A stretch of 53,851 nucleotides of DNA from a virus (lineage: Duplodnaviria > Caudoviricetes), in IMG/VR virus record IMGVR_UViG_3300022744_000036, positions 1-53,851 of that record; one strand, given 5' to 3'. The notes under the pieces are model-generated. The model searched no databases. It was given only the letters and a program-made list of their open reading frames with translations, and had not been told where the DNA came from. Made by a program: the position numbers and the translations under genes. Shown here in pieces: positions 7,099 through 40,688 of the stretch (within the stretch, counting starts at the first letter, position 1; every line of letters starts with the position of its first letter).

Positions 7099-7110
7099 GG
7101 GCCCCTTTTT
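7087..7110. terminator. intrinsic terminator between convergent blocks
   Basis: Palindrome AGGGGCCCCTAGGGGCCCCT followed by a T run. Confidence 0.75.
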
Positions 7111-10100
7111 ATTGCGGCATCGCTTTCTGCAGCTTGCGCTCCCGGTCGGCCTGTGCCTTGGGGTACTTGAGCAACGTCGACAGGGGCTGGCGCTTCATCT
7201 CCTCGGGCTGGTCGTTGAACCAGTGGCGCACGTTGTCCTTGCCATCCTGCAGCTCCTGCCAGTCCTGGCGCAGCTTGGCGGCCTTCTCGTAGTCGTCGGC
7301 CTTCATCGCCTCCGCGTAGCGGTGCTCGATGTCCTTGGTGCGCTCCTGGTAGAACTGCCGGACCTCGTACTGCTGGCTGCGCAGCCACTCCATGTTCTTG
7401 AACGAGGTGCTCTTGAGACCAACCGCGTCGAGCGCCAGGGCAAACTCGTTGACGTCATCCGGCTTGACCATCACGTCGCCGTTCTTGAGCGTGTAGCCCT
7501 CGTTGGCGATGCGGGCAGCCTTCATGGCGTCGGCCGGGCCCTTGGGCATGAGCTGCTCGACCCCACGGTAGAAGTCCCCACGTTTGAAGTAGCCGACTCC
7601 TTCGGCGAACCGGCCGGCCTGCGACAGCGTAGGGCCACCCAGAATACCGCCCAGAGTCTGGGCCATCTCGCTGGCGCTGCCGAACTTGAAGTCGGTGTAG
7701 GGCGCGATGCTGAACACCTTGTCGTCACCCAGCTTGGAGGACATATCCAGGCCCACCATGTTGAGCGGGCCGTGCAGGAGCAAGTCAGCCACGAACGGGT
7801 CGCCGATCCACTCGCGCATCTGGCGCTCAGTGCTCCACGGCTCATCGTCGCCGCCGAACAGGGCGCCCATCACCAGGCCCACCAGGTTCATCGCGGGCAG
7901 GCCCAGCACGCCGGCCGCCATCGAGGTGTGGAACAGCTTGAACGCCAGCATGCGCTTGCCGATGGCCCGCTCCTCGGGGGTTGCGCCCGTGAACGCCTGC
8001 TTGAACGCCCGGGTGTAGAGCGCCGCCATCATGAACTGGTACTTGCGGTACTGCGTCATGACCTTGGGCAGGCGCTTGAGGAGCAGGGGTGCGCCCGTGC
8101 GCGAGAAGTCGCCCTGCGTGGTCTGCAGGATCCGCACTGCGTATTCCTGGGCGGCCTCTTCCGTGCGCCCCTTGGCGATCGCCATGTTGTAGGCCGCCGT
8201 AGCCGCAGCCACGCGGTTGGCCGTCTCCACCGCACGCGAGACCTGGCGCAGCTTGTGCAGCGCGGTGCGCACGCCCTTGGACGCCGCGTCCACCGGGGCG
8301 TAGCCCGTGCGGGTCGCCTCGAAGTGGGTGAGGTCCTCGTCCAGGCCAATGTCCAGCACGCCCATGTCAGCCGCGCGCTGCAGGGCACCACGCAGGCCCG
8401 GGTTCTTCACCCGCTCAAGCTGCAGCTGACCCCACACCCCGGTGTCCTTGAGGGCCTTGTAGCCGTCAGACAGGTGCTTCCACGCTCCGGAGTAGTCGCC
8501 GAAGTCTGCCGCCAGCTTGGGCAGCGTGACCATGAACCCCTGCGTCGCGTTGGCGACGTGGTAGCCCAGGCTGGTCAGCAGCTGCCAGGCCGACGTGAGG
8601 GCCATCGCCCGGTCGGTCCAAGGGGTCTCCTTGTACGACAGGTTCTCGCGGTAGTGGTCCGCGATGGCGTTGAACTCGTTCTGGTGCTCGCGCTTGCCCG
8701 TCAGCGGGTTGCGCGCCTCGCGCTGCATGCGGTAGAACGCCTCGTTGATCTTGCCCCCATGCTCCAGGTTGGCCAGCCAGTTGGCATCCGCTCGCGCGTG
8801 CGAGAGGAAGGAGCGGACCATGTCACTGTCGTAGCCCGCGCGGTTCATGCGCTTGAGCGTCGAGGTGCGGGCGTGGTGCTCGTCGATCGACTGGAAGTAC
8901 ATGTCCTGCACCATCTTGGTCAGGGCTTCCTTGGTGGCCTTTGGCATCGCCTCATCCGCACCCATGGCGGCCAGCAGGCGCTGCAGCGTCGCGTGCTTCG
9001 GGGCCATCGAGTCCGCCAGCTCAGCGGACTTCTCGAAGTGATCGGACCAGTCGAAGCCGCCGCCACCGGCCTTCGAGTTCTTCTCGGCGAACAGGGCGGC
9101 CTGACCGGGCGTGTCGAAGTACGACACCACGTAGTGGTTCGGGTCCTGCTTGAGGGCCTTGACCCGGCTGGCGTCGTCGGCCTGCTCGGCGTCCCGCAGC
9201 TCCTTGGACTTGAGCACCGCCACGTAGTCGCCGAAGCGCTTGAGGGGGGCGTAGGGCTTGCCGTCCGAGCCGGCACCCATGCTGGTGAGCTGGTCCACAT
9301 CGTCGAGCTTGAGGGCCTTCATCAGGCCCCGCTTGACCTTGAGCATCTTCTGCCCATGGGCGAACACGTCGCGCACCACTTGCTGCTCCTCGGGCTTGAG
9401 CAGGTTGAAGTCGCGCTGCAACGTCGGGTCCACCTCGTACTTGACGGGCTCGCCGGCCTTGTCCTCGGCGGGGAACAGGTCCTTGTGCTGCGGATCCAGG
9501 GACGGGTCGTAGCCCCACTTCTGCTGGAAGGTGGACTTGGACAGGAACTCGTTGACGTTCTGCGTCCCGCCAGGCAAACGCTCGGCAGCGGCAGCGACGC
9601 GCTCGGCGTCCTGCTTGAGCTTGTTGCGGGTAGCCTGGACATCCTGCACGCCCTTGTACCAGTCCTTGATGGAGGGCAGGCTGCCCTTGAGGTCATCCAC
9701 CAGGTCGTGCAGGAACGACAGCGAGTCGGCCAGTCGCCGTGCCGTGTGGGTCACGTCGGTTACCACCTGGGACCCCGTGGCTCCCGCCACTCGGCGGGCC
9801 GCAGCGGACACCGGGCTCGGGATGGGCCCGGCGTCGGGCTCGACAGAGAAGCGAATGTCGGGGTTGGGGCCGGTCGCGCCCTCTCCCGCGTAGCTGTACT
9901 TGCTCTCCGTAGAGCCGCCCCGGGTGTCTTCCCCGAGCTGGAAGTGGGCGGCGCCGTAGGCCATGTCCACCACGTCCTGGGCGGTCAGGCGCACCGTGCT
10001 GCCAAGCCTCAGCTTGGCCAGGCCCTTCTTGAGGGCGGCGACCAGGGTGCTCATCCAGCGCTCGACGTTCGTGCGGTACTTCATGGCCGTGGGGTCCACC

Positions 10101-13100
10101 CCGGCACGCACCGCCTCCTCGACGAAGTAGGCCGCCAGCTCCGAGCGCTTCTGCTCGTCGAGCGTACCGGCGTTGATGATCCGGGCCAGGGCCTTGCGGG
10201 CAAGACCCGCCTCCTGACTGCCGTCCGTCATCTCGGACCAGTCGAGGATCTGGTCGGTCAGGCGCTGGAACTCCTTGACGGTGAGGATCTCCTCCAGGCC
10301 CAGGTGCACGCCGGCCTCGTGCATGAGCACGGAGCGCGCGTTGCCCGGCTTTATGTTCCCAGCGATCAGGTACACCCGCCCTCCCGTCACGAACCCCTGC
10401 ACCCGCTTGGCCTTGGGGCCTTCCTTGGACAGCGACTTCTGCACGCGTGGAGGCAGCTCGGAAGCGTCCTGAACGACCACCAGGCGGGGCGACTGCAGCG
10501 CAAGACCCAGCCCCTTGAGTTCCGCCTTGACGGCATCGACCGTGCTGGACTGGCGTCCGGGGCCGGCGACCTTGGACAGCTGCGGCCGCTCCGCCGACAG
10601 CTCACCCCGGCTCATGCGGGACAGCGTATCCTTGGACAGGTGGCGGGCCGGCTCCTGGGCTACTTCGCGGGGCTCGACGTCGGTGACGTCCTGCTCTGCT
10701 CGGCTTGCAGCTCCTTGATCTGTTCGTTCAGCTTGGGGTCCACCTCCCTCCCGTTCAACTGCCTGAACTCCTGTATTAGCTTGAGTTCGTCCAGAGTTGG
10801 CAGCGGGTACTTTCGTGGGAGGGGCCTGCTTGTGGTCATTGGAAATCCTCAGTTGGAATTTGGCTAGGAGAGCGGCTTCAGTATTACCGATCTCCCCCTC
10901 ACCGGACTTCAGTTGGGTGCCGAACTCGGAAACCCAGTCCGCCTTCATGGCGTCGTGGAGATCTTCCCAACTCGGGATCACCGCACCGCCTGACTCCGCA
11001 TTGTCCACGGCTTGAGCGCGCCACTCGTCGGCCGCCATTTCGGCGAGCGGGGAGCCTAGCAAGCGTCGGATGTTTTCTGCACGCTTCGGCGCGTTCAGAG
11101 TGCGCAGGTCCGTAACGATGGCGCCTTCCGGGACTACCACCGCGTCCTCGCGCTTGGCGGGTGCGGGGCCTGCTTTCCGGAGAATGTCGTCAGCCTCCGC
11201 TGCCAGTTTGCGCTGCGCAGTGGTTGGGGCGTCACCAGTCAAATGCCCGTCTCCGGCGGCGGCCCCCAGAGTGTCCTCCACCCGGAATCCGGGGGCGTCA
11301 CCGGCCTCCACGTTGTCCAGGCCCAGCTCGCTGGCGTTGATGGCGTCGGGGCTAACGGCGCTGGCCAGCGCCACGCGCTCGTCGATGCCGAAGTCCTTGA
11401 GCGACGAGGTGATCGCCTGACGGGTCACTTTCTTGCCCGTGCGCTCGCTCTCGACCCGCGCGATCTCCGCAAACGGCATGGGGTCGCGGCCCTCGACCAG
11501 GATCGGGGCGCCCGTGTCCGGGTCTTCCGTGATGTCCCAGCCGGTGGCCAGCAGGATGCGGGACTTCTGCAGTGGGGTGGCGTGCAGGATCTTGTCCGAT
11601 ACCTGCTGGGCGGTCACCGCGCGCTCCCGGCCGGAGCGTCCCACAGTCGTCGTCTTGTTGGGGTCGATGCCGGCTACTGCAGGGGCGACGCCACTTCCAC
11701 CTGGTACAGCCACACCCGCTGCGCGGCTTGCTCCAGGTGCCGGGGTATCGACAGCACCATCAACTCGCTGGCCGGCAACGACAGGTACAGATCCTGCAGC
11801 TCGCTCGCCTCGTAGGGGAGCAACACCCGGTTGTCCACCAGTTCCTTGAGCCACGGGTTGAGCTTGGCCGGTTGTGCGGACATCTGCGGCTCCTTGAGTC
11901 GTGACGGGGGTGATGGGCTTGGCATCCGCCTCGGCTTGCAGGCGAGTGTGCTCGGCCTTGGCGTCGATGAACTTGCGCACGGAGGCGAACCGGCGGGTCT
12001 TGAGTTCCCCGATGCTCTCGGCGTAATCGCCGTCCTGAATCTGGCCGGACTCGTGCAGCGCCTTGAGTTCGCCGAACAGCCCAACGGCCTTGTCGCCCTG
12101 AAGCCCGAAACCGGCGGCCTCGGCGCGCAGCGCCTCAATCCGTGCGGCGTGCTCGTCAGCCTGACGCTTGATCTCGTCCTGACGGGCCTTGTTCGCCAGC
12201 CACACCTGGCGGGCCATGGCGGCCCCCGGGTCGGTCATGTTCTCGGTATCGACGGGGTTGCCCGTCAGGTTGCCGAAGGAATCCGCGTGGACCGTGTCAC
12301 CCTGGAGGTTGACGGCGGGCATCTGCAAGGTCGGGGCGACGGCGCCCTCAACGCGAGGGTCCACCGGGCGGCCATCGCCAGCATACGGGCGCGGATCGTC
12401 GATAGCCAGGGTCAGGCCGGACGTATCGATGGCGGGGATCTGTGTACCCGACGGGCGCCCCTGCGGCAGCTCCTGTTGGGGACCGACCACATCGAGGCCG
12501 CGCGGAATCGCAGTCACACCCTCAAAGCCCTGGGTAGTAGTCCACTCGGGAGTCAGATCGCCAAGCGCCGGGTCATACGCCCGGTTCGGGATGGGGGCCT
12601 GCAGCGGCGCGCCCGTGTCGACACCCTCGAAACCCTGCGCCGTGGTGAGCCCGCCGGGGTTTAGTAGGTCCTTGCCGCCCGTCTGGTCGATCGACGGCGT
12701 GGGGGCGCGACGCCCGGAGCGGATTCCGCCCGGCAGGCCCATGAGACCTTCAACCAGGCCCCCCGCCACCCCGGAGTTCAGGCGCTTGGAGAACGCATCG
12801 TCGGGGCTCACGCGGCCGTTGTAGGCCATCTCCATCTCGTTCTGGAGCAGCTCACTCGTGGCGCCGGTCGCGCCTTGCGTGGCACCGGCCTTGCCGATAC
12901 GGGTCAGCAGGTTGCCCTGGAACCCGGCGCCGTGTCCGATACGCCCGACCAGCATGGCCTCGGGCAGGGTCTCCGTGAGGGCGTAAGGCAGGCCGCCCGC
13001 CAGCGCAGCAGCGCCCGAGTTCGGATCGCCCCCTTCGACGGCTTCCTGGTACAGCGAGCCGACACCTTGGCCGTAGTTGAACGCGCCGCCGCCGACTACC

Positions 13101-13612
13101 TGCTTGGCGAAAGTCTGACCGGCCTCCAAGGCCGCGCGGCGCGCAGCAAATTCGGAGCCGCCGGTAGCCGCAGCCTCCGCCACGCGAGCGGCCATCCCGC
13201 CGCCACCAAGAGCCCTGGGGAGCAGAGCCGCCCCACGAGACAGCGCCGCCGGTACCGCCACTTCCGGGACCACGAGGCCCGCCGCAATGGCGCCGCCGAT
13301 GTTCGGAACCTGCTTGGCCACCTGGTAGGTGGCGTAAGGGAGCCACTTGCTCGGCTTGTCCCACACGTCCTCGACGCGCTCCAGGTCCGGGCGGCCGTTG
13401 AGCTGCGACTCCCGCTGGTTGCGGTCAGCCTGCTCGTTGAGCCAGTCGCGGGCACGATCGGCACCAAAGGTGTCGGCCATGGCCCCGAGCGCACTGTAGC
13501 CAAGACCCTGTAGATCGTCGGTACCGGACGACAGGCCCGCCACGAGCGCATTGCGCTCCGGGCGAGGGCCCAGGTCAAAGCTCTGGAGAATTCGACCTTC
13601 GATGACGGGCAT
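7109..13612 (-). CDS. giant internal virion/ejection protein of the polyvalent type
   Basis: 2167 aa, last gene of the virion operon. HEAGVH zincin-like motif and YAPLKRFGDY (PLxRFG) motif. Confidence 0.8.
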   Translation of the reverse strand: MPVIEGRILQSFDLGPRPERNALVAGLSSGTDDLQGLGYSALGAMADTFGADRARDWLNEQADRNQRESQLNGRPDLERVEDVWDKPSKWLPYATYQVAKQVPNIGGAIAAGLVVPEVAVPAALSRGAALLPRALGGGGMAARVAEAAATGGSEFAARRAALEAGQTFAKQVVGGGAFNYGQGVGSLYQEAVEGGDPNSGAAALAGGLPYALTETLPEAMLVGRIGHGAGFQGNLLTRIGKAGATQGATGATSELLQNEMEMAYNGRVSPDDAFSKRLNSGVAGGLVEGLMGLPGGIRSGRRAPTPSIDQTGGKDLLNPGGLTTAQGFEGVDTGAPLQAPIPNRAYDPALGDLTPEWTTTQGFEGVTAIPRGLDVVGPQQELPQGRPSGTQIPAIDTSGLTLAIDDPRPYAGDGRPVDPRVEGAVAPTLQMPAVNLQGDTVHADSFGNLTGNPVDTENMTDPGAAMARQVWLANKARQDEIKRQADEHAARIEALRAEAAGFGLQGDKAVGLFGELKALHESGQIQDGDYAESIGELKTRRFASVRKFIDAKAEHTRLQAEADAKPITPVTTQGAADVRTTGQAQPVAQGTGGQPGVAPLRGERAAGSVPVVAGQRVDGAVDTPAPGASRAAGVAVPGGSGVAPAVAGIDPNKTTTVGRSGRERAVTAQQVSDKILHATPLQKSRILLATGWDITEDPDTGAPILVEGRDPMPFAEIARVESERTGKKVTRQAITSSLKDFGIDERVALASAVSPDAINASELGLDNVEAGDAPGFRVEDTLGAAAGDGHLTGDAPTTAQRKLAAEADDILRKAGPAPAKREDAVVVPEGAIVTDLRTLNAPKRAENIRRLLGSPLAEMAADEWRAQAVDNAESGGAVIPSWEDLHDAMKADWVSEFGTQLKSGEGEIGNTEAALLAKFQLRISNDHKQAPPTKVPAANSGRTQANTGVQAVEREGGGPQAERTDQGAASRAEQDVTDVEPREVAQEPARHLSKDTLSRMSRGELSAERPQLSKVAGPGRQSSTVDAVKAELKGLGLALQSPRLVVVQDASELPPRVQKSLSKEGPKAKRVQGFVTGGRVYLIAGNIKPGNARSVLMHEAGVHLGLEEILTVKEFQRLTDQILDWSEMTDGSQEAGLARKALARIINAGTLDEQKRSELAAYFVEEAVRAGVDPTAMKYRTNVERWMSTLVAALKKGLAKLRLGSTVRLTAQDVVDMAYGAAHFQLGEDTRGGSTESKYSYAGEGATGPNPDIRFSVEPDAGPIPSPVSAAARRVAGATGSQVVTDVTHTARRLADSLSFLHDLVDDLKGSLPSIKDWYKGVQDVQATRNKLKQDAERVAAAAERLPGGTQNVNEFLSKSTFQQKWGYDPSLDPQHKDLFPAEDKAGEPVKYEVDPTLQRDFNLLKPEEQQVVRDVFAHGQKMLKVKRGLMKALKLDDVDQLTSMGAGSDGKPYAPLKRFGDYVAVLKSKELRDAEQADDASRVKALKQDPNHYVVSYFDTPGQAALFAEKNSKAGGGGFDWSDHFEKSAELADSMAPKHATLQRLLAAMGADEAMPKATKEALTKMVQDMYFQSIDEHHARTSTLKRMNRAGYDSDMVRSFLSHARADANWLANLEHGGKINEAFYRMQREARNPLTGKREHQNEFNAIADHYRENLSYKETPWTDRAMALTSAWQLLTSLGYHVANATQGFMVTLPKLAADFGDYSGAWKHLSDGYKALKDTGVWGQLQLERVKNPGLRGALQRAADMGVLDIGLDEDLTHFEATRTGYAPVDAASKGVRTALHKLRQVSRAVETANRVAAATAAYNMAIAKGRTEEAAQEYAVRILQTTQGDFSRTGAPLLLKRLPKVMTQYRKYQFMMAALYTRAFKQAFTGATPEERAIGKRMLAFKLFHTSMAAGVLGLPAMNLVGLVMGALFGGDDEPWSTERQMREWIGDPFVADLLLHGPLNMVGLDMSSKLGDDKVFSIAPYTDFKFGSASEMAQTLGGILGGPTLSQAGRFAEGVGYFKRGDFYRGVEQLMPKGPADAMKAARIANEGYTLKNGDVMVKPDDVNEFALALDAVGLKSTSFKNMEWLRSQQYEVRQFYQERTKDIEHRYAEAMKADDYEKAAKLRQDWQELQDGKDNVRHWFNDQPEEMKRQPLSTLLKYPKAQADRERKLQKAMPQ
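10660..10839 (-). CDS. nested 59-aa gene in the +1 frame of the giant virion protein
   Basis: MTTSRPLPRKYPLPTLDELKLIQEFRQLNGREVDPKLNEQIKELQAEQSRTSPTSSPAK. GAGGA 6 nt upstream; GC3 bias shifts to this frame. Confidence 0.55.
   Translation of the reverse strand: MTTSRPLPRKYPLPTLDELKLIQEFRQLNGREVDPKLNEQIKELQAEQSRTSPTSSPAK
11674..11883 (-). CDS. nested 69-aa gene in the +1 frame of the giant virion protein
   Basis: MSAQPAKLNPWLKELVDNRVLLPYEASELQDLYL... AAGGAG 6 nt upstream; GC3 bias shifts to this frame. Confidence 0.65.
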   Translation of the reverse strand: MSAQPAKLNPWLKELVDNRVLLPYEASELQDLYLSLPASELMVLSIPRHLEQAAQRVWLYQVEVASPLQ

Positions 13613-34914: not shown

Positions 34915-36351
34915 TCAGGCGTAGACGTACCGCGAGGCCACCACTTTGCGCGCTTGCTGCCGGCCGTACCAGGGCCCCTCGATCTGCGTGTTGACGTGCA
35001 GCGCCAGGTACTGGACGGAGTCCCCGCAGTGGGAGTAGTGGTTCTTCTCGATGGTGGCCTGCATCAGGCCGCTGGTGGTGCGCTTGTAGCGGTGCCCCCA
35101 CTCCAGGGTGTTGGCGACATGGGTGCATTCGGGGTCGACCAGGAACGCGGCCGCGCCGTCGATCTGCCGGGTCAGCAGGCCCTCCACGGCCTGGATGCGC
35201 CGCTCGGGGTCGTTGGTGGATGCCTTGACCACCTTGTAGCCGCGCTGCTGCACCGCCTGCGCGATGGTTTTCTCGTCGACCTGTGAGCGGGCGAAGCACG
35301 CCGGGTCCAGCACGAACACGATATTCTCCGACCGGAACTGGGGGAACTTGGCCCGCAGCTTTGGGATGAGCAGCCTGTCGAGGAACGTCTCCACGCCCAT
35401 GGTCTCGCCCTCGGGGACGTATGCCTCGGCGAGGATGTTGACCCGCCCCCGCGCGTCCTGCTGGCCCACCGTGGCCGCCGCCGTGAGCCCGTTGTCCATC
35501 CCCACAATGAGGGGGTGCAGGGTCTGCATGATGGCGTTGAGCGGGGTCTTGGAGACGTGGAACGACTTCTTGAACGTCCCCTTGTAGATGGGCTGCCCCA
35601 GGTCCCCGGCGCCGAACTGGTTCTTGAGGTAGACGTTGATCCAGTCCTCGCTCTTGCCCGACACGAGGTTCTCGTAGTAGTCGGGCGCCAGGTTCTCCAG
35701 GTTCTCGGCGTCCGCGTTGAGTGACCCGTCGTCCAGCAGCGCTGCGGGCTGGATAAACGCCTCCACGCCCTTCTCTGTGCCCGTCATCAGGCCGTGCCAG
35801 AAGCCCCCCACCGGGGGCGGGTTCATCGAGCAGATGACGCCGGGGTAGGTCACGCCCCCAGCGATGCGTGACGGGTAGCGGTTGACCCGGCCCTGCAGGC
35901 CAGAGAAGACCTCGGGGTCCACCTCGCGGGCCTCCTCCACCCACGCCGCGCTGGCCTCCAGGGACAGTAGGCGCCGCACGTCCTCCGGGGTGTCGGCCGC
36001 CATCAGCATGAACTCGCTGTGCACCACCGTGTCGTCGGGCAGGCGGAATTTGGCTTCGAACACGTTCTCCGACAGCCGCCACTGGCCCATCGTCCCGCCC
36101 GTCATCGTGACGAACCAGGTGTCGATCAGGGGCTTGACCGTCGACTTGAGCTGCGCCACCGTGTTGCGCAGGATGATGAACTTGGTGCGCCGCACCCCGT
36201 TGAACGGCGACTGACCAACCGCACGCTGCAGCAGGTCCATGAGGGCCACGGTCGACTTGCCGCCACCCACGGGCCCCATGATGAGCTTGATGAAGGCCCT
36301 GGAGTTCAGGAACCTCTGGCCCGTTGCGCCGGCCTTGTAGTCGAGCGACAT
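34915..36351 (-). CDS. terL: terminase large subunit
   Basis: Walker A GPVGGGKST, Walker B WVEE, MNPP, nuclease VGMD.G, DPA and YSHCGD. Confidence 0.93.
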   Translation of the reverse strand: MSLDYKAGATGQRFLNSRAFIKLIMGPVGGGKSTVALMDLLQRAVGQSPFNGVRRTKFIILRNTVAQLKSTVKPLIDTWFVTMTGGTMGQWRLSENVFEAKFRLPDDTVVHSEFMLMAADTPEDVRRLLSLEASAAWVEEAREVDPEVFSGLQGRVNRYPSRIAGGVTYPGVICSMNPPPVGGFWHGLMTGTEKGVEAFIQPAALLDDGSLNADAENLENLAPDYYENLVSGKSEDWINVYLKNQFGAGDLGQPIYKGTFKKSFHVSKTPLNAIMQTLHPLIVGMDNGLTAAATVGQQDARGRVNILAEAYVPEGETMGVETFLDRLLIPKLRAKFPQFRSENIVFVLDPACFARSQVDEKTIAQAVQQRGYKVVKASTNDPERRIQAVEGLLTRQIDGAAAFLVDPECTHVANTLEWGHRYKRTTSGLMQATIEKNHYSHCGDSVQYLALHVNTQIEGPWYGRQQARKVVASRYVYA

Positions 36352-36692
36352 CAGTCGAGGTCCAGATCGGCGTTCACCGCCACGTTGGCCAGCAGTGCGG
36401 GAGTGGGCTCAAGCAGCACCGTTTGCGTGGAATTCTCCCCCACGGCGGTCATCTGCATCGCCCCTCCGTTATGGAACGTAATGTTGAACACCGGCAGTGC
36501 GGCGTTGGCGTCCTGCTTCTTCTCGGTCTCAAGGCCGAGCGCCCGGATCGCCAGCTCCACCGCTTTGCGCTTGTCGTCCACGGTGCCATCGGTGCGCAAG
36601 GAGTCGAGGTAGTCCACCAGCAGGCTGGCAGCCGTCTCCTCCAGCGAGTCGAGGAACGCTTCCTTGAAGGCCTGGCGGGTCTGCGCGGACAT
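36351..36692 (-). CDS. putative terminase small subunit
   Basis: Coupled directly upstream of terL; helical with a C-terminal FNITF strand. Confidence 0.55.
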   Translation of the reverse strand: MSAQTRQAFKEAFLDSLEETAASLLVDYLDSLRTDGTVDDKRKAVELAIRALGLETEKKQDANAALPVFNITFHNGGAMQMTAVGENSTQTVLLEPTPALLANVAVNADLDLD

Positions 36693-36719
36693 CGGTAGGG
36701 GTGGAGGTGGTGCGCGGCG

Positions 36720-36884
36720 TCAGCAGGCGCGCTTGGAGCGCGTAGCCGGCACCTTGCCTGCGGGCTTGGCCTGACGGCGGTCGTAGGCTTCCTCGCGGGC
36801 GGACCCCTCCTTCATCGAGCGGGACTCGACATCGCGCTTGGAGCGCTCGAAGGACTTGGGGGTGGAGGGGGGTTTGCGGTTCAT
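36720..36884 (-). CDS. small basic 54-aa protein
   Basis: MNRKPPSTPKSFERSKRDVESRSMKEGSAREEAYDRRQ...; good GC3. Confidence 0.6.
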   Translation of the reverse strand: MNRKPPSTPKSFERSKRDVESRSMKEGSAREEAYDRRQAKPAGKVPATRSKRAC

Positions 36885-36890
36885 GGCGCG

Positions 36891-36919
36891 ATGTTAGCGT
36901 GGATGGGCGTTCGCGGCAA
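36891..36919 (-). promoter_or_regulatory. Sigma70-like promoter for the packaging operon, probably leaderless
   Basis: TTGCCG-17nt-TAACAT, only 6 nt before the ATG; no SD sequence. Confidence 0.55.
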
Positions 36920-37097
36920 GTTAGTGCTTGACGGGCTGAGCGGTTAGGGTGTTAAATATTTAACACGTCCGTGAAAACTGACTGGCCGTGGAGACCGGGT
37001 GATTAAGGGCTGGGGGCGGGGCTAGATCCGCGTGCCCACTCCCCCCGGTCCCCGGGACCCCCAAGGCCCGGCCAGGTTGACGCGGCCCTATAGGTAA

Positions 37098-37410
37098 GGG
37101 CGCTGATCGTAGCACCCCCAGAGCACGATGAAAGGCCCGTTAGGCTCAGTGCGTTAGCGCCCGGTCCGTAGACTGCGCGCGGCCCGCTGCAAAGCCCGAC
37201 GTTCCCGGAGTGGTCGGTCATTAACAATTCAGTTCCGGCGTCAGTACCCGCGAGGGGAAATGGGCCGGCGCATGTTAGGGCATGCGTGAGCTAATCCCTA
37301 CGTCCAAACCATTCCGCGCGCCTAACCCGCAAGGCACGGCGCAAAGGGCCTAGCAAACCCTTGGGATGGCTTTGGAGGATGCATTGCCTTGCAGTGTCTC
37401 CTTTGAAGCC
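37098..37410 (+). ncRNA. candidate structured RNA/leader
   Basis: Several nested stems with GNRA loops (GCGA, GTGA, GCAA); boxA-like GGTCATTAACAATT at 37216. Confidence 0.45.
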
Positions 37411-37433
37411 CATTCACTCACTTAGGACTGACC

Positions 37434-37871
37434 ATGACCACCGAAATTTCCACCGTTTCTTTCGCCGACGTCGCCACCGTGCTCAGCACGACGAACAAGG
37501 CCGGCTCCCGCGTGTCCTTCGAGGCCTCGATCGCCTTCGCGTCCAAGGACTCCCGGCTGATGCTGTCGGCCAAGACCTACGCGATCGCCGTCGAACACGG
37601 CCGCTACGCCGGCCTGATCCGCGATGCCCTCGATGCGGGCCTGATGACGAAGGACGCCGCCGGCATCGTCGCCGACATGCTCGGCGCGGCCCGCAACCCC
37701 TCCAAGGAAGTGACCGTCAGCGTATGCAACGTCATTCTTGGCCGCGTCGCTGGCAAGGCGCTCAAGGGTAAGAAGGCTTTCTATGCCGACCTGATCCGCC
37801 GCCTATACGACAGCTTGACCGGCACGCACACCCCCGCCAGCACCGACGTGGTGGAAACCGCCCAAACCTGA
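37434..37871 (+). CDS. first early gene, hypothetical
   Basis: TAGGA RBS; high-expression codon bias. Confidence 0.75.
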   Translation: MTTEISTVSFADVATVLSTTNKAGSRVSFEASIAFASKDSRLMLSAKTYAIAVEHGRYAGLIRDALDAGLMTKDAAGIVADMLGAARNPSKEVTVSVCNVILGRVAGKALKGKKAFYADLIRRLYDSLTGTHTPASTDVVETAQT

Positions 37872-37960
37872 CCGAGAGCCCAGCCTATGCCCTTCACGGG
37901 GCATGGAGTGCGCTTTCTGCACCGTGTTAGGGGGCGCCGAGCCCCCGTTAGCCCGCACTC

Positions 37961-38480
37961 CCATAGAACACGGGTGTTTTCGGGGGTGTGTTCTATGGCG
38001 AGATTTCACAATCCGGAAAATAGGGGTGTGCTGCATGTGATCTATGGGTGTTTTCGGGGTGTTTTTCTATCTATCTATCTATCTAATAAAGAACAATAGA
38101 ACACATAGAACACATAAAACACATCAAAAAAAAATCAATTTCGCGTAAACGTTTTGGAAATTACAGAACCTTACACCCCCTGACCCCTAGTAGGGGTGTG
38201 GTGTACTGCGATTTCCTTTATTGAGATTGATTTTTTTTACCTGTGTTTTATGTGCGTATTGTGTTTTAAAGCCCGTGCTTATTGTGTTTTATGGGAGCAC
38301 ACCTGTGCTCTATGGCGACACTCCCCTGTGCACCAAGTCCCCCATAGATCACTGTCCGCACAATAAAGCACAACGCGACACATCTAGCACAATAGATCAC
38401 TGTCCGCACGGTTGTGCTCGAATAAAACACAATACCGTACATATAGCACGCCTGTGCCCCAATGCATCACATAAAACACA
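37961..38480. repeat. AT-rich direct/inverted repeat array (origin or genome-end candidate)
   Basis: ATAGAACAC/ATAAAACAC units on both strands, (CTAT)4, an A run, and an 18-nt direct repeat at 38344/38392. Confidence 0.65.
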
Positions 38481-38644
38481 GGCGACCGAGCCCCCCCCGG
38501 CCCGCGACGCCCTCACTCCCTACAGCCCTGCCGGATGGTGCCTAAAAAATAGGCACCTGTGCCGCACGAACGTGTCGGCCTATCCGGGAGCGTTGTTAGC
38601 GCCCGCTAACTTTGCCCCATTCACTCACTAACTGGAGTCCTGCG

Positions 38645-38740
38645 ATGCCTGCCATCCTGCCTTCCCACGCGCGGTACCCGTACCGCATCCTGCGGGCTGT
38701 GTTCGCCCGCATCCTGCGGGCTGTGTACCGCTGGCTCTGA
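38645..38740 (+). CDS. 31-aa cationic amphipathic peptide
   Basis: GGAG RBS; MPAILPSHARYPYRILRAVFARILRAVYRWL. Confidence 0.45.
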   Translation: MPAILPSHARYPYRILRAVFARILRAVYRWL

Positions 38741-38783
38741 CCCGCCGCCACCCCATCAACCCCCTAACTGACTCACTCACACC

Positions 38784-40688
38784 ATGACGTTCTATCCTCC
38801 CCCCAACGCGGTGCCGGTGCGCGAGCGCACGCTGGCGTCCCATCCGGGACCGTCCTTCTGGTCGTACTCGGAGCATGGCGAGTACCTCTGCGTCGCGGTT
38901 GTCCCCCGCGAGGCGCAGACGGTTGTCGGCATCCCTGGCAGCCCCGCCGATTACTGGAAGCCGATCTACGCGGGCAACACCACCCACTACGCTGCTGCGT
39001 GCGCGGCTGCTGACGAGCACAGCGGCCTGCGCGGCCCCGGCGAACCCCGGCAGCTGGTCTACCTCAACATCTACGACCGCGACGGCCTGGGCGAATACAC
39101 CTACTACGACGCCGCCCGGACCGGGGCCCCGTCCATCCGCCTGGTGCGGGCGTGGGCTATAACCGCTCTCCGTTCGACCTTCCCGGGCGTCGGCCTCCGC
39201 GCACGGTTGCGCACGATCATCGAGGGTGGCGGCTTGGGCACTCCCCGCATCGGCCCGGTGCAATACCGCAACGTCATGGACGCCCGCAGCGCCATCGGCA
39301 CCTCGCTGTCCGACTGGATCAAGGAGTACCGGGACGCGGACGACAGCGAGGGCGCCAAGGAGGCCCTCCTGGAAACCCTGGTGTCCCTGGAAACCCAGCT
39401 CAACTGCCTCGACAAGGACCGAGACGAGATGAACGACCTGGCACGCACCGTGGCGAACAAGGTGGGCCTGCAGACCTGGGAGTGCCCGGTGTACTGTCAC
39501 TGCTGGCACTGGGAGATCAGCGACCGCACAACGTCGGTCGGGTCCCGGCCGGTCACCCGCTGGTGCTGGGACTGCGTGGGTAACCGGGCCGTGTGGGTCG
39601 AGGGGGAAGACCGCTACTACCCTGCCAGCGACGTGTACTTCTGGGACAGCGACGGCGAGTACCACCTGAACCCCGAGGAGGAGGAGGAGGAGGAGGAGGA
39701 GGAGGAGGAGGACAGCGACAACCCCGACCGCCTGCTGGACTACGGCGAAGACGCGCTGAGCCACCTCAGCATCGACAAGAGCGTGCACACGGCCCCCGAT
39801 GGCGACTTCCTGATGGGCATCGAGCTGGAGATGCAGCTGCCGGGAGAACCCAACCGCTACATTGAGGAGATGCGCGACAAGCTGCGTGGCCTGCACAGCA
39901 CGACGGCCGACCCGTGCAGCCACTACGCGGTGTTCAAGTACGACAGAAGTCTACCCACGTGTGGGGCCGAGATGGTCACCAGGCCCACCAGCCTGCTGCG
40001 CCATCATGCGGTCCTGCGCAAGTGGAGCGCCCCGAGCGGTACCTCGGCCTGGGACAACGGCCGGTGCGGTATGCATGTGCACATCGACAGCCGCGCGTTC
40101 ACGCCGCTGAGCCTGGGCAAGTTCGTGACGTTCATCAACCGCAGCGAGAACGCTGAGCTGATCCGCATGGTGGCGGGGCGTCACCCGGCGCAAGACCACC
40201 AGGCTGCGTCCTACTGCCAGGCCCTGGGGTACGAGTGCCTCACCACGCCAGCCAAGGCCAAGAACGGGGACACCGAGCGCCACCGCATGGTGAACCTGGA
40301 GAACCTCAAGCCCGGCGACTGCGAGCGGCTGCAAGTGAACCCAATGCGCTTCGGCGATGCCGGGACCGTGGAGCTGCGGATCTTCCGGGCGTCCCTCAAT
40401 AAGGAGCGCCTGCTGGCCCAGCTGGAGTTCACCCACGCCTCCGTGGTGTTCTGCCGCGACGCAAGCTGGAACGGGCTGACCGAGAAGGCGTTCGTCGACT
40501 GGCTCAAGCGCCCCGAGAACGCGCGCACCTACCCGGCCCTGGCCCTGTGGGTGGGGGCCCGCATCCGCCGGCCCCGCCGTGACATCCCCGCCCCGACACC
40601 CGAGCCCGCCACCGAGGAGAACACCAGCACGGCGCAGGCTTGGGCCGTGACGGCCACTGCAGACGACCGCTTCGCCCTCGCGGCTTGA
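38784..40688 (+). CDS. amidoligase (COOH-NH2 ligase, glutamine-synthetase fold)
   Basis: GIELEM, KYDRSL..GAEMVT, CGMHVHI and TVELRIF motifs. Confidence 0.85.
   Translation: MTFYPPPNAVPVRERTLASHPGPSFWSYSEHGEYLCVAVVPREAQTVVGIPGSPADYWKPIYAGNTTHYAAACAAADEHSGLRGPGEPRQLVYLNIYDRDGLGEYTYYDAARTGAPSIRLVRAWAITALRSTFPGVGLRARLRTIIEGGGLGTPRIGPVQYRNVMDARSAIGTSLSDWIKEYRDADDSEGAKEALLETLVSLETQLNCLDKDRDEMNDLARTVANKVGLQTWECPVYCHCWHWEISDRTTSVGSRPVTRWCWDCVGNRAVWVEGEDRYYPASDVYFWDSDGEYHLNPEEEEEEEEEEEEDSDNPDRLLDYGEDALSHLSIDKSVHTAPDGDFLMGIELEMQLPGEPNRYIEEMRDKLRGLHSTTADPCSHYAVFKYDRSLPTCGAEMVTRPTSLLRHHAVLRKWSAPSGTSAWDNGRCGMHVHIDSRAFTPLSLGKFVTFINRSENAELIRMVAGRHPAQDHQAASYCQALGYECLTTPAKAKNGDTERHRMVNLENLKPGDCERLQVNPMRFGDAGTVELRIFRASLNKERLLAQLEFTHASVVFCRDASWNGLTEKAFVDWLKRPENARTYPALALWVGARIRRPRRDIPAPTPEPATEENTSTAQAWAVTATADDRFALAA
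39675..39710 (+). repeat. (GAG)12 trinucleotide repeat encoding poly-Glu
   Basis: Directly visible. Confidence 0.95.

Follow-up and report, generated by a model that had tools for sequence, protein, structure and literature searches.

We examined the stretch at 37098-37410 (+ strand) in the genome of an uncultivated podovirus-like phage. The genome is the complete IMG/VR virus record IMGVR_UViG_3300022744_000036, which was analysed over its full 53,851 bases (hereafter the window; G+C ~65%, estimated completeness ~90%). The sequence-only reading of this stretch had proposed one large structured RNA with a boxA-like element, acting either as an antitermination leader or as a non-coding RNA (ncRNA). 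The stretch is most likely a ~340-nt leader of the early operon, on the early-operon side of a divergent intergenic region. On balance, we favour a cis-acting leader that couples Nus-factor antitermination, in the style of ribosomal RNA (rRNA) operons (rrn), to a hairpin for processing or translation control. Two elements bear most directly on this: a boxA-like motif and the last hairpin of the leader. Judged from the sequences of related phages, both lie far beyond chance expectation.

Related phage loci are designated below by L-numbers, and bacterial genomes or metagenome-assembled genomes (MAGs) by G-numbers. The nearest isolated phages have a terminase protein only ~35% identical to that of the window, and blastn of the intergenic region against isolated phages gave no match. 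Closer relatives are metagenomic contigs with terminases 55-75% identical. Two of the related contigs were binned in Burkholderiales MAGs, one of Oxalobacteraceae (G001, which holds L173) and one of Pigmentiphaga (G002, which holds L015). When the region was compared by blastn with 25 terminase-linked loci, only 24 nt aligned (L002, 92%). Thirteen leaders were defined first, and those of L173 and L171 were then added, giving 15. Despite DNA that does not align beyond the 24 nt, the layout is conserved across the 15 leaders, in the same orientation. From the late-operon start it passes through operator-like palindromes, a TTTTGAAAA(A/T)TGG-like motif and G/C runs with a GGTCCCACCC-like motif. 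A promoter-like motif follows, then a leader of 330-660 nt, and finally the ribosome-binding site and the first early gene. Where both ends are defined, the intergenic regions of the relatives at this place span ~500-920 nt.

boxA motifs in phage leaders and in rRNA operons of the likely host family

The boxA-like element that had been noticed at 37216 is indeed located there (GGTCATTAACAAT), ~120 nt into the predicted leader RNA, and it is the single boxA of the window. Matches to the boxA consensus of the sequence-only reading, GCTCTTTAACAA, with two or fewer mismatches number 15 and fall in 11 of 24 distinct upstream regions; all are in the sense orientation and none is antisense. Of these matches, five belong to tandem DNA repeats of L008 and L034, with a TTTAACAA motif, and were not counted as boxA. 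The exact host pattern, G[ACT]TC[AT]TTAA[AC]AA, occurs seven times in 626,976 nt, counting both strands of the window and of 41 phage loci, and every occurrence is in an early leader on the sense strand. The unbiased, terminase-derived cases are L016, L019/L044, L048 and L173.

The phage motif comes in several flavours. L048, L070 and L003 carry TCTTTAAAAAT, as does L050 with a deletion; L016 carries TCTTTAACAA, as does L002 with one change. The unusual flavour TCATTAACAA is shared by the window, L019/L044, L173 and L171. The gamma-proteobacterial consensus GYTCTTTAANA, as given in excerpts of a published study (PMC5725501), is matched exactly in L016, L048 and L070. In the predicted folds the motif tends to be exposed. 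The unpaired probability is 0.72 for the window boxA versus a leader mean of 0.36, and over 11 leaders it averages 0.70 for boxA versus 0.40 for the whole leader, although part of this exposure is trivial because of A+U content.

We searched G001 for the window variant and found it in two places, the phage contig L173 and a small contig with 16S rRNA at its other end. On the latter, the motif (GTTCATTAACAATT) follows two promoter-like sites and precedes 16S by ~190 nt, which is the position of an rRNA-leader boxA. This rRNA leader and the window have the TCATTAACAA core in common. Across 41 genomes of the G001 family, GNTCATTAACAA matches were no commoner than those of a reversed control, and the 12 loci fetched were without rRNA. 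As this genome-wide search was uninformative, we read the rRNA leaders directly. In detail, 61 genomes were searched, 33 had a match to the 16S motif, 30 loci were fetched and 28 were read, the other two having too little upstream sequence. Of these 28, 27 have a boxA at a distance of 172-241 nt upstream of the 16S motif. Its form is G[T/A/C]TCTTTAA[A/C]AA, except once, in G001 itself, where it is GTTCATTAACAA (1 genome). The other variants are GTTCTTTAAAAA (10 genomes), GTTCTTTAACAA (7), GATCTTTAAAAA (4), GCTCTTTAAAAA (3), GATCTTTAACAA (1) and GTTCTTTAACAG (1). This comparison of sequences supports the view that the phage boxA motifs copy variants of the rRNA leaders of the likely host family.

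Antitermination driven by boxA is textbook knowledge for rRNA operons and lambdoid phages, and has recently been recognized in a few cellular mRNA leaders. Excerpts of two studies describe boxA elements as binding NusB-NusE and making rRNA transcription resistant to Rho (PMC4807359, PMC5725501). As in rrn leaders, the window has a boxA, predicted to be single-stranded, early in what would be a long untranslated transcript. The variants in the phage leaders equal those of the likely host family, and protection from Rho would be expected from the same excerpts (PMC4807359, PMC5725501). The window copy differs in being part of a phage early mRNA leader, and equivalents of boxB and boxC were not identified.

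Several observations weigh against an rrn-style boxA in the window. The motif GGTCATTAACA fits 9 of the 11 positions of the gamma-proteobacterial consensus, with G at position 2 and A at position 5, where the textbook rrn boxA has T. Excerpts of a study of lambda report that transversions at this T abolish boxA function (PMC3177189); the rRNA boxA of G001 carries the same A as the window. Only 1 of these 28 rRNA leaders has the TCATTAACAA variant, and none has the G that the window carries at position 2, where A, C or T is found instead. The link between phage and host comes from the metagenomic binning of one contig (L173 in G001), and the uninformative genome-wide search counts on the same side. 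Among the 15 leaders, four (L008, L018, L021 and L100) lack a boxA-like motif, and no boxA is present in the relative L015, whose leader is short and has a canonical-looking promoter. Ascertainment also matters. L171 was found using a pattern that contains the boxA motif, and L070 passed an either/or filter (a boxA-like match downstream of the promoter-like motif, or a GGTCCCACCC-like one upstream of it) through its boxA-like match.

A second phage-host pair was considered and set aside: the Pigmentiphaga MAG G002 gave no 16S match, and the leader on its contig is that of L015.

A broader proposal is that these phages, probably of Burkholderiales, copy the boxA variant of the host rRNA leader and thereby take over the ribosomal antitermination complex without an N-like protein, and that the variant tracks the host closely enough to mark it. 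From the sequences at hand we consider this doubtful as a whole. If it held, the boxA variant would be a simple sequence clue to host identity. In addition, the abundant early leader might deprive host rRNA synthesis of Nus factors by titrating them.

Predicted structure of the leader RNA

The long bipartite hairpin that precedes the ribosome-binding site (Table 1) covaries strongly among the relatives. A first covariance model, built from six relatives, found non-seed matches in L011, L043 and L070, each ending exactly at the ATG of the first gene. We counted structure on alignment A4 (10 rows), with nine pairs in the upper helix and seven in the lower helix, which was outside the model that produced A4. 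In A4, 86.7% of the cells are paired, compared with 30-45% when partners are slid, and 79.7% are paired in the lower helix alone. Changes on both sides were seen for 13 of the 16 pairs, and 0 of 500 shuffles reached the observed score. A second model, R2, includes both helices and found further matches in L009, L002 and L050, again at the ATG. For the non-seed rows (alignment A8), 96.7% of cells are paired versus 26-45% with slid partners; such alignments favour pairing because they are fitted to the model. The hairpin is specific to the + strand, as many of its pairs are G.U, which would be A.C on the other strand. It is a new, well-supported RNA motif and a candidate for RNA family databases.

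The window hairpin is a longer variant of the family hairpin. Relative to L173, its upper helix (GCAUUGC/GCAGUGU) is identical; in the middle helix, two pairs differ by compensatory changes and one G-C pair is replaced by G.U. Two results count against assigning it to the family. R2 matched the window only weakly (37342-37436; 15.4 bits, E 0.0023 in a 616-nt region with filters off), and a search of the whole window with default filters missed it.

With its covariation and its fixed place relative to the ATG, the bipartite helix has the shape and position of an RNase III-type processing hairpin. Like the RNase III hairpins of phage early RNAs, it is a two-part helix of ~16-19 bp with a small internal loop, placed before a ribosome-binding site; there is no sequence similarity, and the likeness is one of shape and position only. 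Early transcripts of T7 carry RNase III processing hairpins, and Kameyama and colleagues, in a 1991 paper cited by PMC11893012, reportedly described one in the lambda N leader. The window hairpin would most likely serve as a processing site of this type or control the translation or stability of the first early gene. The UCCU-like stretches of its 3′ strand could pair with the ribosome-binding site, which we offer only as a suggestion.

Upstream of the long hairpin are two short hairpins, present in both the minimum free energy (MFE) and centroid folds. Two short hairpins also occupy this place in L019 and L173, with different sequences. The loop CCTAGCAAA occurs on a different stem in L050, and CCTAGCAA occurs in L018. 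The stretch ACTCACTTA after the long hairpin is common to the window and L008, with similar stretches in L050, L031 and L173.

All of the pairings that had been listed from the sequence exist. They are 37098-37106/37154-37162 (9 bp, one G.U), CCGGC/GCCGG (37235-37239/37264-37268) around CCC-GCGA-GGG, TAGGG/CCCTA, CCATTCC/GGGATGG around both GCGCC..GGCGC and AAGGG/CCCTT, and the hairpin at 37368-37410. The idea of one large structured RNA fared less uniformly. Compared with shuffled sequences, 37098-37410 folds modestly better in the sense orientation (z -2.15, 1 of 100 shuffles as good) and not in the antisense one (z -0.44, 35 of 100). The 338-nt leader has z of -1.5 to -1.9. The 3′ third (37300-37433) is both structured (z -2.86, 2 of 200 shuffles as good) and conserved, whereas the 5′ half is not significantly structured: for the first 140 nt (37096-37235), 31 of 200 shuffles folded as well (z -0.92), which weighs against a fully structured leader. 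In 12 leaders the sense strand folded better than shuffles in every case (z -0.8 to -7.8, mean -2.5), and in 11 of the 12 its z was more negative than that of the antisense strand (mean -0.9).

Three GNRA tetraloops on one strand had been taken as a sign of selection at the RNA level. Among those named, one is solid (GCGA at 37250, on a stem of at least 3 bp), while GTGA and the named GCAA cap stems of only 2 bp; a further GCAA near 37189 is on a 3-bp stem. GNRA hairpins with stems of at least 3 bp thus number two in the window versus 0.58 expected (P ~0.10), and for the window alone the argument is weak. Across the leaders there are 23 GNRA hairpins on the sense strand versus 9.9 expected, and 9 versus 9.5 expected on the antisense strand.

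These strand comparisons bear on the possibility that the region acts at the DNA level only, its stems being by-products of GC-rich DNA and palindromic operators. The whole-stretch z of the window is modest, as this would predict, and the promoter-like motif, the palindrome GTGTTAAATATTTAACAC, TAACACGT motifs and GGTCCCACCC-like tracts, all conserved upstream of 37098, resemble DNA sites. In L008 and L034, moreover, TTTAACAA is part of tandem DNA repeats upstream of the promoter-like motif. However, the folding excess is asymmetric between strands in 11 of 12 leaders, GNRA enrichment is limited to the sense strand, boxA is confined to that strand, and the covariation makes use of G.U pairs that would be A.C on the opposite strand. 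We therefore regard control by DNA alone as improbable.

At the 5′ end, the arm at 37098-37106 can instead form a local hairpin with an AUCG loop (37098-37117), and L019 and L171 favour this version. The hairpin core GCTGATCG(Y)AG is invariant in the window, L019, L044 and L171 and has one change in L173. In L019, the same 5′-terminal hairpin forms within a well-defined MFE fold. An alignment of the window with L019 by MAFFT/RNAalifold was unreliable and was discarded, and L019 was not placed structurally by MAFFT.

Alternative pairings also occur in the 3′ third, where GGGATGG can pair with CCATTCC upstream (37310) or CCCATTC downstream (37410). The closing helix CCATTCC/GGGATGG has a counterpart in a three-way junction of L019. 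Such mutually exclusive pairings would suit a switch resembling a riboswitch or thermosensor. A related possibility is an antiterminator that needs no protein factors, like HK022 put RNA, in which two specific stem-loops act on RNA polymerase. In the relatives, the 3′ arm of a hairpin just upstream overlaps the lower helix of the long hairpin. That upstream hairpin, tried as a conserved element in the family alignment, was rejected: it pairs in just 60% of the cells. A conserved core of the ligand-binding or put-like kind was not found (put itself was not compared directly), nor was there an Rfam match. A factor-independent antiterminator or switch is accordingly very improbable.

Similar evidence bears on a free-standing or processed ncRNA, such as a phage small RNA or decoy arising from the intergenic region. 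Both the strand specificity of the structure and the conserved hairpin would suit it, and the bipartite hairpin could serve as the processing site that releases the leader. In L021, a terminator-like hairpin (GCCCGCAC-GU-GCGGGC, then AUUUUCUUU; 1263-1290, - strand) with a U-run lies between the long hairpin and the ribosome-binding site. No counterpart exists in the window, and no terminator-like site was seen there between the leader and the ATG. Moreover, the conserved hairpin keeps a fixed distance from the ribosome-binding site and ATG of the first gene. A search of the whole window against Rfam (release 15), proposed as a check, gave no matches at gathering thresholds. At E of 10 or less, the matches in 36600-38900 were at chance level and elsewhere or on the other strand, with none on the + strand within 37098-37410. 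Nothing favours the ncRNA reading, and we consider it quite unlikely.

Proposed antitermination at the early operon

In the cis-acting leader that we favour, transcription of the + strand would proceed from the promoter-like element at 37075-37098 into the ~340-nt untranslated leader. The exposed boxA of the nascent RNA would load host NusB-NusE, followed by NusA, NusG and SuhB, onto RNA polymerase. Rho-dependent termination would then be blocked across the untranslated leader and the C-rich gap that follows the first gene. The 3′ third would fold into the two short hairpins and the long bipartite hairpin, ~20 nt upstream of the ribosome-binding site.

The gap after the first gene (37872-38783, ~770-900 nt) is poorly coding and C-rich on the + strand, with few credible open reading frames (ORFs); G+C is 0.546 and GC skew -0.168 over 38001-39000. 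A long untranslated leader followed by a poorly coding, C-rich gap would create a need for antitermination. Against this, a search of the + strand over 36600-38900 revealed no terminator-like site.

The start of the transcript is less firmly placed. The promoter-like motif is the best-conserved DNA of the region and its sole blastn match to relatives. It occurs once in the window at three or fewer mismatches, and variants occupy the same place in L002, L016, L048, L021, L018, L008, L070, L100 and L173. It does not have sigma-70 geometry, with TTGACG just 6 nt from TATAGG(T), which counts against it as a promoter, and a promoter scan detected none. For these reasons the start site is only inferred, probably just after 37098. 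L171 supports this position, since a -10-like TATGAT hexamer lies there 7 nt before the shared 5′ sequence GCTGATCG. A scan with a degenerate promoter pattern returned 120 stretches, mostly chance matches, of which only L070/L084/L164 and L100/L163 were kept.

Two other explanations of the leader start were considered. The odd motif might be read by a phage RNA polymerase, and no such gene was found among the large window proteins scanned. Mimicry of rrn P1 by the 5′ end of the leader was dropped because GCTGATC stands in an rRNA promoter context only in G001, 1 of 25 leaders.

The hairpin that follows boxA raises the possibility of a lambda-type nut site, in which boxA and the hairpin at 37235-37268 would be bound by a phage N-like antiterminator together with Nus factors. 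The order boxA, spacer, hairpin is seen in the window, L003, L019, L171 and L173, with the hairpin of the four relatives 10-18 nt after boxA. Like nutL, which stands before N in lambda, the site comes ahead of the first early gene. According to excerpts of a published study, the mEp phages, which are Nus-dependent non-lambdoid coliphages, have nut sites of boxA and boxB together with an N-like protein rich in arginine (PMC11893012). The window shares with these an early leader in which boxA and then a hairpin come before the first early gene, and a 31-aa arginine-rich ORF is present at 38645-38740. Neither loop nor stem of the post-boxA hairpin is conserved, however: the loops are GCGA, GUGA (in L003), 8 nt and 10 nt, so no shared protein-binding loop is seen, and no lambda-type boxB with a conserved loop next to boxA was found among the relatives. 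The 145-aa product of the first gene is not arginine-rich and has neither a PHROG match nor a usable Atlas match; its one Pfam hit, RsmI_C, is below threshold (E 0.0017, 18.6 bits versus a 27-bit cut-off). No recognisable N-like protein was found, and the window has one boxA where lambda-type systems have two or three nut sites. As neither a conserved boxB loop nor a recognisable N-like protein was found, we think a lambda nut site unlikely. The antitermination leader proposed from the sequence alone gains support in its rrn-like form, with a boxA in homologous leaders, in sense only and of the rRNA type of the likely host family, and not in the form of a lambda nut site or an HK022 put RNA.

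A cellular counterpart is the suhB mRNA, where excerpts place a boxA that recruits Nus factors outside rRNA (PMC5725501). Its position in the 5′ untranslated region, with more than 50 nt before the start codon, is like that in the window. According to the same excerpts (PMC5725501), the suhB complex represses by promoting termination through Rho, whereas by analogy with rRNA the window boxA would permit read-through.

A limited literature search found no description of an rrn-type boxA in leaders of such phages. The present case concerns a different, uncultivated podovirus-like group, whose long structured early leader bears a boxA of the rrn style, with no N-like partner evident. If our reading is correct, phages that rely directly on the host machinery for rRNA antitermination would extend beyond the lambda paradigm, and the escape of a long untranslated early region from Rho would be explained.

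Genome setting and neighbouring features

The packaging and structural genes are on the - strand, from ~36884 down to 7109, and include the large terminase (34915-36351; PHROGs), a portal or adaptor protein, the major head protein and internal virion proteins. The replication genes are on the + strand from 37434, with DNA polymerase, helicase, a primase-helicase-like protein, dUTPase and a DHH phosphoesterase. No tRNA was found in the window. Among public sequencing runs, one DNA run contains the stretch and may be its source, and none of RNA is listed for it. The first early protein, used as a probe, found no relatives in viral contigs, and tblastn on the loci found it only in L003, plus weakly in L008. 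Features of the intergenic region are listed in Table 1.

Table 1. Coordinates of the divergent intergenic region, its elements and its flanking genes in the window
Feature	Position	Strand	Basis or remark
First late-operon gene	36720-36884	-	ORFs
Divergent intergenic region, between late/packaging operon (-) and early operon (+)	36885-37433 (549 nt)		ORFs, codon-position GC
Promoter-like motif GGTTGACG-N6-TATAGGTAAG	37075-37098	+	Best-conserved DNA of the region; sole blastn match to relatives
5′-terminal hairpin GGGCGCUG-AUCG-UAGCACCC	37098-37117	+	MFE; competes with 37098-37106/37154-37162
5′ domain, imperfect long-range fold	37118-37215	+	Least supported part; no alignable homologue found
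boxA-like motif GGTCATTAACAATT	37216-37229	+	Consensus match, comparison with relatives
Post-boxA hairpin, CCGGC/GCCGG enclosing CCC-GCGA-GGG (37247-37256)	37235-37268	+	Sequence; 6 nt after boxA
Short hairpin GCGCC..CC-GCAA-GG..GGCGC	37318-37342	+	MFE, centroid
Short hairpin AAGGG-CCUAGCAAA-CCCUU	37344-37362	+	MFE, centroid
Long bipartite hairpin: lower helix, small internal loop, upper helix GCAUUGC-CUU-GCAGUGU	37364-37415 (core 37368-37410)	+	MFE, family model
Unstructured CA/U-rich stretch CCCATTCACTCACT and ribosome-binding site (AGGA 37424-37427), ATG 37434	37409-37433	+	Sequence
First early-operon gene	37434-37871	+	ORFs; 145-aa product

Upstream of the leader, 36928-37060 holds a series of DNA motifs: the palindrome GTGTTAAATATTTAACAC (36949-36966), TAACACGT-type sites, the TTTTGAAAA(A/T)TGG-like motif, G/C runs and the GGTCCCACCC-like motif, which in the window is GTGCCCAC (37033-37040). 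The series is found at the same place in L002, L003, L008, L009, L016, L018, L021, L048, L050, L070, L100 and L173, and its members are possible operators, a late promoter or a packaging site. The tandem repeats of L008 (1190-1288, - strand) and L034 are 43 nt long, with GATATTTAACAAG and GTAGTGGC runs; boxA-like by sequence, they are DNA repeats, possibly iterons or operators.

Within the gap after the first early gene, 37872-38620 (~750-900 nt) is AT-richer and crowded with repeats, both direct and inverted (CACATAAAACACA, ATAGATCACTGTCCGCAC and a 46-nt inverted pair, 38097-38142/38223-38268). L016, L048 and L003 have similar gaps after the first gene. The gap might serve as an origin of replication or as a further non-coding RNA region. 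The 14-mer CCCATTCACTCACT recurs exactly at 38616-38629, followed by GGAG and the 31-aa ORF. This ORF includes a tandem RILRAV(F/Y), encoded by two identical 20-nt DNA repeats (38683-38702 and 38707-38726).

In the virion module, the - strand gene at 7109-13612 encodes a 2167-aa protein whose C-terminal part matches DarB-like antirestriction PHROGs (E 1.6e-42). Among the relatives, positions 1-80 of L015, at the contig end, consist of at least eight tandem copies of CTGCGCCCC.

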